Source of the DNA: an uncultured Bacilli bacterium
GTDB taxonomy: Bacteria > Bacillota_I > Bacilli_A > RF39 > UBA660
Reading direction: 5' to 3'
Assembly: GCA_947629315.1 (NCBI GenBank)
Contig: CANRDB010000001.1
Location: 4,829-68,828 of the forward strand
Length of the DNA: 64,000 nucleotides
Both the position numbers and the translations under genes were made by a program. The notes under the pieces are model-generated. The model did no database searches. It was given only the letters and a program-made list of their open reading frames with translations, and was not told the DNA's origin. Every line of letters starts with the position of its first letter. The stretch's first letter is position 1. Shown piece by piece: positions 18,448 through 30,925 of this stretch.

Positions 18448-18717
18448 ATGAATGATGAAATATATCAATATGCTCTACAAAAAATTGAGTGTGATAGTCA
18501 ATTCAAGCCAATTGGATGTTATGGTAATTCCCGTGGCAGTACTGGCCCAACTGGCCCTACCGGTCCGACTGGTCCCCAAGGACCCGCTAGCATCACCATA
18601 GGTACCACAACAACAGGCGCTCCAGGAACAAGTGCAGCTGTTACCAATTCTGGTACTAATCAAAATAGTATTTTAAATTTTGTGATTCCTGCAGGAGCAA
18701 CTGATGCTATGTCATAA
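18448..18717 (+). CDS. BclA-like collagen-like (GPT-repeat) protein with C-terminal beta-domain; candidate 5' segment (C1) of an interrupted exosporium-type collagen gene
   Basis: MNDEIYQYALQKIECDSQFKPIGCYGNSRGSTGPTGPTGPTGPQGPASITIGTTTTGAPGTSAAVTNSGTNQNSILNFVIPAGATDAMS. A GGAGG ribosome-binding site is upstream. The final gga gca act g|at codons carry the junction motif seen at the other element boundaries. Confidence 0.6.
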   Translation: MNDEIYQYALQKIECDSQFKPIGCYGNSRGSTGPTGPTGPTGPQGPASITIGTTTTGAPGTSAAVTNSGTNQNSILNFVIPAGATDAMS

Positions 18718-18742
18718 ATCACAAAAAAAGAATTGATTAGAA

Positions 18743-20977
18743 TCAATCCTCAATTTCTTTAATCAACATTTGATATAACGCACGATTTCCTTCCTCTGTT
18801 AAATGAATTTTATCCACTCGTACATATTCTTTATGTTGTTGAATCTCTTCATAAAAAGGAATAATATGGAGAGACGATATTCCCAATGTTTCTAGTAATA
18901 TCTCGTCCTCTTCTGTCATCGCTACTACATATAACTCATTTTCTTGGCACAATTGGAAAACTGTTTGTATTTCTTGTTCCAATCTTGGTACCTGACTATC
19001 AAAAGCTACTACTAATCGATAAGTTAACGTATTACTATCCGCAGCTTTTTGAAGTTCTTGTTGCAAATCTTGCCAAGTAAAATCTTGCCGAACAATAAAC
19101 TGTGCTTGTTGATATTCCTGATGTAGTTCATTAAAAATATTCACTAAAACATCATTACCGTAAAAGGTAATTTTATTTTTTAATTCTTCTTCATGATGAT
19201 GAATAATCTCTTCTTTTTTCTGTTGATATCGATCTAGATAAACTTGATAAATAGATTGATAAATTAAGTTGGTGTAAGCCTTTCTTCCTTCTGGAGTTAA
19301 GTGGATACCATCCGCATAAAAATACTTTGAATGTCCTTGTGATGCAGTCTCCCAATCAATAATATGTAAATTAGAATGACTCTTACTTAACTCTTTTAAT
19401 TTACTATTTACATGGACATCTTTATCGTTAGTAACCGTAATCCAAAAGACATCTCTATCACCACACGTTTGTAAAATTTCTTCCTTACAAGAAGAAGAAC
19501 AATCTCCATTCGCACCCAAATTCAATATTACAGGATTACCTAACAGATTACTATCCTCTAATTCTTCTAAAATACCGTTCGCTACCCAAATAGAACGTGA
19601 TACCTTCGCATCAAAATATCCATTTGGAAATTGTTTATAGAGATTATCAACAGCTCCTAACATAATAGAATCCCCGACTCCAACTACGGATAACTCAGAA
19701 ACAATCTTTTGAATTTCTTGTTCCCCATTCTCTAAATCCTCTAAAACAGAGAACCAATCTTCTTGTTCCTGTTGTAATCGATCCGCATACTCTTTTTGTT
19801 TTTGTTGAATAACCTCTTCATTAGCCGCTAACTCTTCTTTTAGTCTTTTCATTTCTGCCGTATGATCCTTCGTTTGTGCATAACAATAAACACCAGGAAC
19901 ACAGATGACACACAATATGATAGCCATCGCTGCATGCATTCTCGTTCTAGCATGGGGTCGACTACTGATGCTAAAATGAAAAACGGAACCTACTACAAGC
20001 ACTCCTAAAAGAATCGATAAAATCCGTACAGAATCCGACATTGAAAAGGCTTGCAAAAAGTAAATAATCGGATACTGAACCAAGTAGATGCAATAACTTC
20101 TATCTGAAAACCAATGAACAATTCGGTTTCCTACCCCTGCTAATTTGTTTACCATCAAAGTACTATAATCAATCATCCGACAAGTAATAAGAGATACTAT
20201 CAACATTGCTACTGCCCAAGAAGGTGCAGAAGCATCGATTGTTAAAAATAACCAAACTAAGAGAACAAAATATCCTCCAAAAAGACCATAGGCAATCAGA
20301 GAATGTTTCATGTTTTTTAGAATAAGTGGATAATAATAAAACTGAATAAACCCTAAAGTCATTCCCCAAAATAAGGAAAACATTCTCGTAAACGTATGAT
20401 AGTAAACCACCATAATATCTTGCGTGCCACTCATTTGATAAAAATACCAAGCACTTCCTATCGATACTACCAATAATAGTAAACAAGGAATCATTTTATG
20501 AATATGATCTCCTATTTTACGTAATATTTGATAGAAGAATGGAAAAAGCAAATCAAATTGCAATAAAATAGAAATATACCATAAATGCATAAATGGAGAA
20601 TCTAAGTGTCTAGCAAAATAATCTAAATTCGCCCCTAATTGCCAAAAATTATTATATCCTAACAAAACAGATGTTGTCTCTGGTTTTAAATTCAACCATG
20701 TATACTGGGAACAAAAAAACACAACAAAAAGAGTTAAGAACACAGTCAATAACAAAGGAAAATATATTTTAGTAAACAGTCTCTTATAATATTCCCAAAT
20801 AGAAAAATGATTCTTATGAAAAGCTGAAACGCACGATAGATAGCCACTTAACACAAAGAAACAACAGACCGCTAAATAGCCTCCTTTTAAAACATGCAAA
20901 TGATAAAGCAAAACGGCAATGCATGATAACACTCGTAAATAATCTAGTGCATAATAATACTTCTTAGTACTTTCCAT
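18743..20977 (-). CDS. Acyltransferase-3 family membrane protein fused to an SGNH/GDSL hydrolase domain (OatA-like O-acetyltransferase)
   Basis: 744 aa with about 10 N-terminal TM helices (YALDYLRVLSCIAVLLYHLHV...), then a coiled coil, then an SGNH-like domain (VVGVGDSIMLGAV...). Confidence 0.75.
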   Translation of the reverse strand: MESTKKYYYALDYLRVLSCIAVLLYHLHVLKGGYLAVCCFFVLSGYLSCVSAFHKNHFSIWEYYKRLFTKIYFPLLLTVFLTLFVVFFCSQYTWLNLKPETTSVLLGYNNFWQLGANLDYFARHLDSPFMHLWYISILLQFDLLFPFFYQILRKIGDHIHKMIPCLLLLVVSIGSAWYFYQMSGTQDIMVVYYHTFTRMFSLFWGMTLGFIQFYYYPLILKNMKHSLIAYGLFGGYFVLLVWLFLTIDASAPSWAVAMLIVSLITCRMIDYSTLMVNKLAGVGNRIVHWFSDRSYCIYLVQYPIIYFLQAFSMSDSVRILSILLGVLVVGSVFHFSISSRPHARTRMHAAMAIILCVICVPGVYCYAQTKDHTAEMKRLKEELAANEEVIQQKQKEYADRLQQEQEDWFSVLEDLENGEQEIQKIVSELSVVGVGDSIMLGAVDNLYKQFPNGYFDAKVSRSIWVANGILEELEDSNLLGNPVILNLGANGDCSSSCKEEILQTCGDRDVFWITVTNDKDVHVNSKLKELSKSHSNLHIIDWETASQGHSKYFYADGIHLTPEGRKAYTNLIYQSIYQVYLDRYQQKKEEIIHHHEEELKNKITFYGNDVLVNIFNELHQEYQQAQFIVRQDFTWQDLQQELQKAADSNTLTYRLVVAFDSQVPRLEQEIQTVFQLCQENELYVVAMTEEDEILLETLGISSLHIIPFYEEIQQHKEYVRVDKIHLTEEGNRALYQMLIKEIED

Positions 20978-21122
20978 ATTTCAAACCTCATTCATTGTGA
21001 TTATATATCATAAAGCCTTAAAATTCAAGACACTTTACGTCAATCCTAACTAATATTTTGTGAGAAAAAAACATGATTATTTGTTTCATTTTATTTTATG
21101 CAATTAGAAAGGAGTTATACTG

Positions 21123-29420: not shown

Positions 29421-29834
29421 TGCCACTTTGAATGGTTTGCAACTGGTTCTACTGGAGATATCGGTCCTACGGGTCCTACCGGTGATATTGGTCCTACTGG
29501 CCCTACCGGTGATGTTGGTCCTACGGGTCCTACCGGTGATGTTGGTCCTACTGGTCCTACTGGTGATATTGGTCCTACGGGTCCTACCGGTGATGTTGGT
29601 CCTACTGGCCCTACCGGTGATGTTGGTCCTACTGGCCCTACCGGTGATGTTGGTCCTACGGGTCCTACCGGTGATGTTGGTCCTACTGGTGCAACTCCCG
29701 CTCTTACTATTGGAACTGTAACCACCGTTGGTCCAGATGAACCAGCTGCAGCTACTATTACTGGAACTGCCCCTAACTTTGTTCTTAATTTAAGTATTCC
29801 ACAAGGTCCTACCGGTCCTGCTGCTGGAGCATAA
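29421..29834 (+). CDS. Collagen-like gene 3' segment C4: about 27 GPT/GDI/GDV triplets plus a C-terminal BclA-like beta-domain; no start codon of its own
   Basis: (CHFEWF)[30 protein letters not shown]...[51 protein letters not shown]. The C-terminal domain is homologous to that of C1 (ASITIGTTTTGAP...NFVIPAGAT). Confidence 0.65.
29448..29690 (+). repeat. Tandem 9/18-bp collagen-coding repeat array (ggtcctacNggtcctaccggtgatRttggtcctactggYcctaccggtgatgtt)
   Basis: Near-perfect direct repeats encoding GPTGPTGD(I/V). This is also why both strands produce long spurious ORFs here. Confidence 0.85.
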
Positions 29835-29839
29835 TCAAC

Positions 29840-30925
29840 ATGAAAATTATTGTTTATGCTATCGCTAAAAATGAAGAACAATTTGTAAATCGTTGGTGTC
29901 AATCTATGAAAGAAGCAGATGATATCTATGTATTAGATACAGGTTCTACTGATAATACTGTGAAACTATTACAAAATAATGGTGTCCATGTTACAGAAGA
30001 AACTATTCATCCATGGCGCTTTGACACCGCTCGAAATATTTCTCTTGCATTAGTTCCTACCGATGTAGATTTATGTGTATGTACTGATTTAGATGAAGTC
30101 TTTGAAACTGGATGGAGAAAAAAATTAGAACAAGAATGGAACCATCAAGCCAATCGAATTTCTTATTCTTATCACTGGCAATTAGACGAAAATAACAAAC
30201 CTATTATTAGTTTTTACATTAGTAAAATTCATACCCGTCAAAATTATTGTTGGACTCATCCTGTTCATGAAGTATTAACTTATTTAGGAAATCATGAACA
30301 AACACAAATTATTGATGATATTCAAGTATATCATTATCCAGATACGAATAAATCTAGAAGTAGTTATCTTCCACTATTAGAATTATCCGTTCAAGAAGAC
30401 CCATCTGATGACCGCAATATGCACTATTTAGGTAGAGAATACATGTATTATGGCTACAATGATAAAGCTATTGACACATTAAAAAAACACCTCAAACTAA
30501 AAAAAGCTACTTGGAAAGATGAAAGATGTGCATCCATGAGATTTATTGCACGATGTTATGCTAGAGAGGGAAAGTATCAAGAAGCTATAGAATGGGTAAA
30601 GAACGCTATTGAGGAAGCACCTTACTTAAGAGACCCTTATATGGAAAAAGCAATGATTGACTATCAACAACAAAATTGGCAAGAAGTCATTCATTCTAGT
30701 TTACAGGCTCTAACAATTGTTAAAAATCAAAAAACTTACATCAATGAATCTTTCTGTCAAAATGAAGTGATTTATGATTTACTTTCCATCGCGTTTTACA
30801 ACCTAGAATTATATTCTTTCTCTGATTTTTGTATCCAAGAAGCCTTAAAATTTTCTCCAAATAATACTCGCTTGATTGAGAATCAAAAAATTATTCAATC
30901 AAAAAGTAGAAAAGGAAATGTATGA
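29840..30925 (+). CDS. Family-2 glycosyltransferase with C-terminal TPR repeats (candidate glycosyltransferase for the collagen-like protein)
   Basis: [40 protein letters not shown]...CVCTDLDE (GT-A DxD) plus TPR-like C-terminal half. Starts 5 nt after the collagen gene stop. Confidence 0.7.

Follow-up and report, generated by a model that had tools for sequence, protein, structure and literature searches.

Three small serine-recombinase elements within one collagen-like gene of an uncultured Bacilli bacterium

How might a gene that lies in four separate pieces still give rise to one protein? The question is raised by 64,000 nucleotides (nt) of DNA from an uncultured Bacilli bacterium (GTDB lineage RF39, UBA660; positions 4,829 to 68,828 of contig CANRDB010000001.1, assembly GCA_947629315.1), the whole of which we call the window. 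Between a SecA-like gene and a gene for a GT2-TPR glycosyltransferase, it holds four collagen-like segments of G-X-T repeats in one shared frame, separated by three blocks that each contain the gene of a large serine recombinase (LSR). The junctions, predicted attachment sites and recombinases described below show that three elements were inserted by serine-recombinase site-specific recombination, each at its own predicted attB in the G-A/P-T-G repeats of a single gene. We then weigh whether the gene is rebuilt during sporulation.

The divided gene and its attachment sites

The segments (C1 to C4), the elements between them (E1 to E3) and the adjoining glycosyltransferase gene follow one another in this order:

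18448..18703, + strand: C1, the 5′ fragment, with ribosome-binding site, ATG, Cys-containing N-terminus, short GPT run, first module of about 40 amino acids (aa) and start of the collagen region
18704..23149: E1, 4446 bp, with arms CATAAATCACAAAA (left end) and TTTTGTGGTTTATG (right end)
23150..23266, + strand: C2, a collagen fragment of 117 nt or 39 codons, whose 3′ end is the attL2 core
23267..26103: E2, 2837 bp, with arms TTGTCAAAA (left end) and TTTTGACAA (right end)
26104..26148, + strand: C3, a collagen fragment of 45 nt or 15 codons, whose 3′ end is the attL3 core ACTG
26149..29445: E3, 3297 bp, with arms AAAGTGGCAC (left end) and GTGCCACTTT (right end)
29446..29834, + strand: C4, the 3′ fragment, with a long GPT/GDV collagen run, a C-terminal module of about 45 aa and the stop codon
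29840..30925, + strand: GT2-TPR glycosyltransferase gene, starting 5 nt past the C4 stop codon

Joined in order, C1, C2, C3 and C4 form an in-frame open reading frame (ORF) of 807 nt encoding 268 aa. The product would run from a Cys-containing N-terminus through a short GPT run, a module of about 40 aa and a long collagen region to a module of about 45 aa, the last of which is also found after the first collagen stretch, and exactly this architecture is shared by three intact short members of the family (P0004, P0017 and P0024). Pfam reports collagen repeats only in the rejoined protein (PF01391, E = 6.6e-21), with no match to PF18573 (BclA_C, the TNF/C1q-like C-terminal domain of BclA), and its N-terminus, judged by eye, lacks a hydrophobic signal-like segment. 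Repeat type and frame are continuous over every junction, and C2, C3 and C4 are free of stops and frameshifts. As it lies in the window, C1 runs to a stop at 18717 and yields 89 aa, while C4 has no in-frame start codon. The outer junctions recur in two other, independent metagenome assemblies, the left junction of E1 together with the C1 ORF at locus L003 and the right junction of E3 at locus L001, which also holds C4 with fewer repeats.

All six junctions carry a core in direct orientation, and the identity of attL and attR extends over 7 nt in E1 (GCAACTG), 10 nt in E2 (GGAGCAACTG) and 4 nt in E3 (ACTG):

18697..18703, + strand: attL1 core GCAACTG, with the predicted crossover dinucleotide AC at 18700-18701
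23143..23149, + strand: attR1 core GCAACTG
23257-23266: attL2 core GGAGCAACTG
26094-26103: attR2 core
29439-29445: attR3 core GCAACTG
Predicted attB junction sequences of the three elements: GATTCCTGCAGGAGCAACTGGTCCTACGG, CCTACCGGAGCAACTGGTCCAGTAGG, CCTACGGGTCCTACTGGTTCTACTGG
Predicted attP junction sequences of the three elements: CTTTGCAGCAACTGATGCTATG, CTATGGAGCAACTGAACCTTAT, GGTTTGCAACTGCACTCACTT

When the right end of each element was joined to its left end to reconstruct attP, the arms formed imperfect inverted repeats centred on the core AC, with 21/28 mirror matches for E1 (p = 5e-5), 18/28 for E2 (p = 1e-4) and 21/28 for E3 (p = 5e-5), against 9.4 +/- 2.0 under the null. Every LSR gene ends within 22 nt of a core or inside an att arm. 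Since attL and attR share a direct core around AC, each LSR could delete its element as a circle, and precise deletion of each would leave a scar-free, in-frame coding sequence. Direct cores lead to deletion and not inversion, so inversion of a shufflon kind was ruled out. Nor do the elements form a classical tandem array at a single att site, because 117 and 45 nt of coding DNA lie between them and the three attB are distinct.

These results bear out the central proposal of an earlier note on the window, that one gene is split by three LSR elements, since each element has its own attL and attR and precise excision restores one ORF. The note had put the blocks at about 4.4, 2.8 and 3.3 kb, which agrees with the measured 4446, 2837 and 3297 bp, and its limits for C1 and C2 were exact; C3 had been placed at 26103-26147 and shifts by one nucleotide to 26104-26148, and C4 starts at 29446 rather than at 29455.

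Recombinases, cargo and relatives of the elements

Each element consists of one LSR gene and one cargo gene, with an extra small ORF in E3 and possibly in E2, which places all three near the minimum possible for a recombinase plus one gene:

21123..23120, + strand: LSR1, 665 aa, TTG start, insertion of about 140 aa in the recombinase domain; stop 22 nt before the attR1 core
23282..24796, - strand: LSR2, 504 aa; stop codon (23282-23284) within the attL2 arm
27831..29420, + strand: LSR3, 529 aa; stop 18 nt before the attR3 core
18743..20977, - strand: E1 cargo, a membrane acyltransferase of 744 aa (Acyl_transf_3) with a weak SGNH/GDSL-like C-terminal match
24984..26012, - strand: E2 cargo, a zinc-ribbon membrane protein of 342 aa
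26257..27651, + strand: E3 cargo, 464 aa, with a Lys/Glu-rich repetitive region and an N-terminal hydrophobic segment that by eye is a signal sequence
27732..27824, + strand: E3 small ORF, 30 aa, with a strong Shine-Dalgarno sequence, just 5′ of LSR3 (MMMKVISHFKDNGENLTKVIEELLKNIIQK)
24768..24917, - strand: possible E2 small ORF of 49 aa (32 aa if begun at an internal Met) that overlaps the start of LSR2

The three LSR genes are the only ones in the window. All three proteins score above the Pfam cut-offs for PF00239 (Resolvase), PF07508 (Recombinase) and PF13408 (Zn_ribbon_recom), and all retain the Y-x-R-L-S catalytic motif, which agrees with the full-length recombinase that the earlier note had assigned to each block, as the cargo genes agree with its one or two per block. 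As the note had it, the 3′ end of LSR2 overlaps a junction; for the other two it had given 19-22 nt to a collagen junction, and the measured distances to the core are 22 nt for LSR1 and 18 nt for LSR3.

LSR1 and LSR2 share 53% identity in their catalytic domains and about 29% outside them, and LSR3 shares about 30% with either; judged by their sequences, the three elements are mutually unrelated or distantly related. The closest solved structures are SPbeta SprA for LSR2 and the TnpX catalytic domain for LSR3. Among curated NCBIfam models the nearest is XisF, at 68-92 bits, so far under its cut-off of 375 that the match reflects general LSR similarity alone; CcrB and CcrC are also among the nearest curated LSR models. 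The mini-elements contain no transfer or replication genes, PADLOC matched none of the cargo to a known defence system, and an Rfam search found no intron or ribozyme, a tRNA being the only match. IMG/VR held no close relatives of LSR2 or LSR3, and its 16 matches to the attP-type pattern ATCGAGCAACTGCTCGAT were all unrelated high-GC coding sequence with no LSR nearby. Exact-sequence look-ups of LSR1, LSR2 and P0240 returned no identical record.

Small ORFs of 29-30 aa with a strong Shine-Dalgarno sequence directly precede the LSR in E3 and in elements at two other loci, L113 (7904-7993) and L115 (5890-5979). They share 54-57% identity with one another, and the LSRs of the same elements share just 49-77%; the 30-aa ORF of E3 is a candidate accessory or directionality factor. 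The possible E2 ORF resembles it weakly and has no counterpart in the E2-type element of L013, and no small ORF was found before LSR1. A possible analogue was also seen 5′ of the LSR at L024.

Related elements occupy related genes elsewhere. L013 is a syntenic orthologue, with an intact SecA-like gene 5′ and a GT2-TPR gene 3′ (64% identity), and is interrupted by a single E2-type element of 5016 bp whose att arms are near-identical to those of E2. It encodes an LSR2 orthologue (53% identity), a zinc-ribbon protein (74%) and, in addition, upp and uracil permease, and rejoining its gene gives 1077 nt in frame. L013 has both flanks that the earlier note had named for a comparison with relatives, and itself carries an element. 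An E1-type element at L024 ends on the right in an LSR1-like gene of 680 aa, and its attP is palindromic around AC. The E3-type relatives are L113, L115-L118 and L120. At L113 the element carries the same three genes, namely a secreted protein (45% identity), a 29-aa ORF and an LSR (77% to LSR3), and interrupts a family gene with BclA_C encoded in its 3′ part; at L115, L118 and L120 the LSR 3′ end abuts collagen repeats.

A metagenome scan with an LSR3-family alignment detected no circular forms. Most of what it returned was a distant clade (30-40% identity), in which 1/54 loci had a collagen association, so that collagen targeting is confined to the closer clade. We tentatively propose, leaning towards doubt, that these recombinases form a family of mini-LSRs of gut spore-formers specialised on bclA-like exosporium repeats, three of which would be stacked here, and that the 29-30-aa peptide would be the smallest directionality factor so far proposed. 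LSR 3′ ends were also seen to abut collagen-coding repeats at L038, in the cultured Clostridium methylpentosum DSM 5476 (6349-8254), and at L067, in a Mediterraneibacter metagenome-assembled genome (MAG).

Gene family and sporulation context

By sequence, the collagen-like gene is a member of a BclA-related family paired with GT2-TPR. Relatives were found by a contig profile scan with an alignment of the N-terminus (a scan with GT2-TPR alone gave none), and they come mostly from MAGs of uncultured gut Bacilli and Clostridia. At more than 20 loci of different species the family gene is adjoined by a GT2-TPR orthologue, so the glycosyltransferase that the earlier note had placed 5 nt after C4 is a conserved partner as well as correctly positioned. 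Its conservation supports a putative spore-surface location and glycosylation of the collagen-like protein.

The same note had given C4 a BclA-like C-terminal domain, which is not borne out, Pfam finding collagen repeats alone there. Its label of the gene as BclA-type survives in part: the window gene is without BclA_C, and relatives that share its N-terminus and its first module have it (L022, L025 and the 3′ fragment of L113), at scores of 39.7-39.9 bits against the Pfam cut-off of 38. A PDB sequence search with the short-form member P0024, taken as proxy for the window architecture, returned no BclA. The likeness to BclA of Bacillus and BclA1-3 of C. difficile lies in an N-terminal domain followed by a GXY region, the lack of a signal peptide and the adjoining glycosyltransferase gene; the window protein differs in having the module of about 45 aa in place of BclA_C and a Cys-containing N-terminus instead of the Bacillus targeting motif. 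We dropped as an argument a supposed 'widespread truncation' of homologues (all 68-151 aa), because the homology listing seems confined to lengths near that of the query: a query of 86 aa brought up lengths of 68-151 aa, one of 63 aa brought up lengths of 60-111 aa, and such figures are not readable as biology. Single truncated examples were checked in their own DNA context.

The sporulation genes named in the earlier note are all present: SpoIIIAH, a GerE-type helix-turn-helix protein and Germane (GerM-like) are encoded 4-6 kb upstream of the collagen-like gene, and FtsK/SpoIIIE is also found in the window. In the closest relatives the gene likewise lies downstream of ftsK-eno-spoIIIAH-gerE-gerM. 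The mother-cell sigma factors sigmaK and sigmaE have CATAnnnTA as their -10 consensus. Of 27 non-redundant family genes, 18 have this motif upstream, compared with 8.6% of the other genes in these loci, which served as background (Fisher p = 1.5e-10). This enrichment suggests that the box belongs to a sigmaK/sigmaE-type promoter. A scan of sigma-70 promoters gave 50 matches, against 52 expected from shuffled sequence.

Several neighbouring features stand apart from these subjects:

14452-14525: tRNA gene between the Germane (GerM-like) and SecA-like genes
2189-2434: ORF of 81 aa, rich in Gly, Tyr and Pro (..YGGNYGGNYGGYNPPYYTNNYYYPPYPYYGPY), with a composition reminiscent of spore-coat proteins
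1275-2135: ylxY-like polysaccharide deacetylase gene adjoining the 81-aa ORF
30961-31899, - strand: membrane protein with a Pro-rich PVAP-repeat N-terminus
36709-38907, - strand: larger membrane protein with the same PVAP-repeat N-terminus and a Peptidase_C11 (clostripain) domain

Possible developmental excision and its alternatives

The three elements may be excised in the mother cell and the gene rebuilt during sporulation, a reading to which we give an even chance. The three excisions would take place late in sporulation, in the terminally differentiated mother cell, when a sigmaK/sigmaE-type promoter would drive the gene, and the full-length 268-aa protein would be made in that cell only. 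The forespore, as germ line, would retain all three elements on its chromosome, and their loss from the mother cell would not be inherited. Requiring all three excisions, the gene would act as a three-input AND gate. Direction could be controlled by the small ORF in front of LSR3, the one candidate factor seen, or the recombinases could be factor-independent like those of the TnpX/Ccr type.

Constraint on the pieces argues for continued use of the gene. Compared with L013, a species carrying the orthologous E2 insertion, the promoter-less 3′ fragment has a ratio of nonsynonymous to synonymous substitution rates (dN/dS) of 0.13 and the 5′ fragment one of 0.14, at dS about 1.2-1.5. In L004, L009 and L012, 5′ fragments that share one truncation point (ACTG directly followed by CTCGATT) and the same downstream genes show dN/dS of 0.13-0.19. 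The genes of the elements are also constrained, with 0.28 for LSR2 and 0.18 for the zinc-ribbon protein (against L013), 0.15 for LSR3 (against L113) and 0.31 for the E3 small ORF; the E3 cargo protein is less so (0.48). A dead gene would hardly show such low values if the insertions date back to the species splits.

The strongest competitor holds that the elements are selfish: a guild of LSRs that prefers DNA of the G-A/P-T-G motif would have accumulated three insertions in a dispensable gene, now inactive in this lineage, and any excision would serve element transfer alone. A number of observations favour it and weigh against developmental excision. Within one species, whose loci share 99% nucleotide identity downstream, L092 is occupied and L095 is an empty site, the two together defining attB as GGAGCGACTGGCTCAACAGG and attR as TTATCGAGCAACTG directly followed by GTCCAACAGG. 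An identical 544-aa LSR (6001-7635) occurs at L115, L116 and L117, in three collagen contexts from three samples, and at L117 the insertion lies within an N-terminal GCCCGGRPIPGPTGP stretch; besides the LSR, this element encodes a second, small resolvase and a DnaB_C helicase module; it is also found inserted in the opposite orientation and appears to be currently mobile. With relatives mobile, the window insertions could be recent and the purifying selection could predate them. At L004-L012, neither a 3′ fragment nor an LSR was found within 10 kb of the truncated gene, the far end of the insertion being beyond the 10-kb flank or the contig end.

The window itself adds to this side. Its promoter box (CGTACCTTA, 18421..18429, + strand) is one mismatch from CATAnnnTA, and the boxes of the family lie 15-22 nt from the start codon, unusually near for a -10 element. 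Upstream of LSR1, LSR2 and LSR3 no sporulation-type promoter was recognised, and no directionality factor was recognised on E1-E3. The SecA-like neighbour is frameshifted near 15290-15300 into ORFs 14652-15368 and 15400-18366, against one ORF of 1124 aa in L013, which could mean locus decay and a real pseudogene, or a sequencing error in the MAG. The collections searched contained no excision product, rejoined allele or circular attP, IMG/VR gave no hits to the attP patterns of E2 and E3, and no empty-site allele of the window species was retrieved among the assemblies looked up. As the host is known from metagenome assemblies only, its sporulation is deduced from gene content.

Selfish insertion nevertheless has to account for downstream fragments C2-C4 without a stop or frameshift, for the 3′ module held at the low dN/dS given above in comparison with a species carrying the orthologous E2 insertion, and for 5′ fragments that remain constrained behind one shared, ancient truncation point. 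Mini-elements with no genes for transfer or replication have nevertheless kept LSRs that are intact and constrained, and mother-cell genes are a known insertion niche of such elements. We regard selfish insertion as rather unlikely.

Two side observations concern the truncated loci. In L004 and L008-L012 (around 10300) the family gene is cut between ACTG and CTCGATT and followed by upp and uracil permease, and the same pair of genes lies inside the E2-type element of L013 (11888-14037). L093 holds the same pieces as L092 and L095 in a different arrangement, which may be a misassembly.

Stochastic ON/OFF switching is a further alternative, in which excision at low frequency in growing cells, perhaps with re-integration, would let a minority make the collagen-like surface protein, much as happens in active lysogeny or with yin, an element dependent on growth phase. 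For LSRs of the TnpX/CcrAB type, excision is possible with no separate directionality factor (PMC5595907), TnpX is the best solved match of the LSR3 catalytic domain, and yin shows excised and integrated subpopulations at every time point (PMC10747680). Three independent excisions in a single vegetative cell would, however, be rare, heritable excision in the germ line should soon produce empty-site alleles (the assemblies looked up had none from this species), and the box 5′ of the family genes points to a sporulation sigma factor; we hold such switching to be improbable. Weakest is an assembly chimera of elements from three different collagen-like genes misjoined through shared repeats, which we consider highly improbable: collagen repeats do often break or misjoin assemblies of short reads, this contig alone shows the internal junctions E1-C2-E2 and E2-C3-E3, and the repeat number of C4 differs in L001, but the longest exact matches elsewhere in the window (26 nt for C2, 15 nt for C3) are below usual assembly k-mers, so that repeat-mediated misjoining is unlikely, single reads can span both segments, the outer junctions are independently confirmed, and frame and repeat type run on through the junctions.

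In design the locus matches known sporulation gene-intervening elements. LSR-bearing intervening elements occur in sigK, spsM, spoVFB, gerE and yabG (PMC5595907, PMC4191935, PMC10747680), among them skin with SpoIVCA in sigK, SPbeta with SprA-SprB in spsM, vfbin in spoVFB, yin in yabG, and gin with GirC/GirX in gerE of Bacillus cereus ATCC 10987, an element of 28.6 kb without phage genes. Like these, E1-E3 lie within a coding sequence whose ORF excision would restore, and have a short common core flanked by imperfect inverted repeats; gin is the closest match because it, too, has no phage genes, and spsM is alike in that the target here, too, would concern the spore surface. The known sporulation elements are single, mostly of prophage size, and interrupt mother-cell genes, whereas here three separate elements with three different LSRs share one gene, whose use in the mother cell we infer. 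At 2.8-4.4 kb, E1-E3 are far smaller than gin or the prophage-like elements of 48-134 kb, they target repeat-encoded sites of a collagen-like region, and they differ in lacking a recognised directionality factor and in that sporulation-specific excision is here a prediction.

Several recombinase-bearing elements in one gene are known from heterocyst-forming cyanobacteria, where elements with XisF-type LSRs divide Rivularia nifD (four elements) and Calothrix nifBHDK (13 parts) (PMC4874684, PMC11249958). E1-E3 resemble these in number within one gene and, presumably, in the need for a terminally differentiated cell, and differ in phylum and in the type of differentiation. Integrative elements are also known to stack in tandem at a single att site (PMC7192596); such arrays and composite staphylococcal cassette chromosomes (SCC) likewise bring integrase-bearing elements side by side at one locus, but E1-E3 are not inserted into each other's attL or attR. 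In the paper library that we searched, no publication connects a serine recombinase with an exosporium or collagen-like gene. Collagen is absent from a survey of regulated gene integrity, and the bclA genes of C. difficile, covered by a large phylogenomic study, are reported there to include pseudogenes but no recombinase elements.

What sets the locus apart from the known sporulation elements is the very small size of the elements, their collagen-repeat target and the sharing of one gene by three of them. Whatever the timing of excision, the locus reveals a clade of LSRs with predicted attB/attP pairs that recognise short collagen-coding motifs, together with a conserved micro-ORF partner, and both are of interest as recombinase tools. 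Should all three recombinases indeed act in the mother cell, endospore formers would have their first case of developmental gene reconstitution from several elements, a counterpart of the fragmented heterocyst nif genes, and gene reconstitution in a spore-former would match the complexity seen in cyanobacterial heterocysts. Mobile elements would then also have a bearing on how the spore surface of abundant, uncultured gut bacteria is composed.

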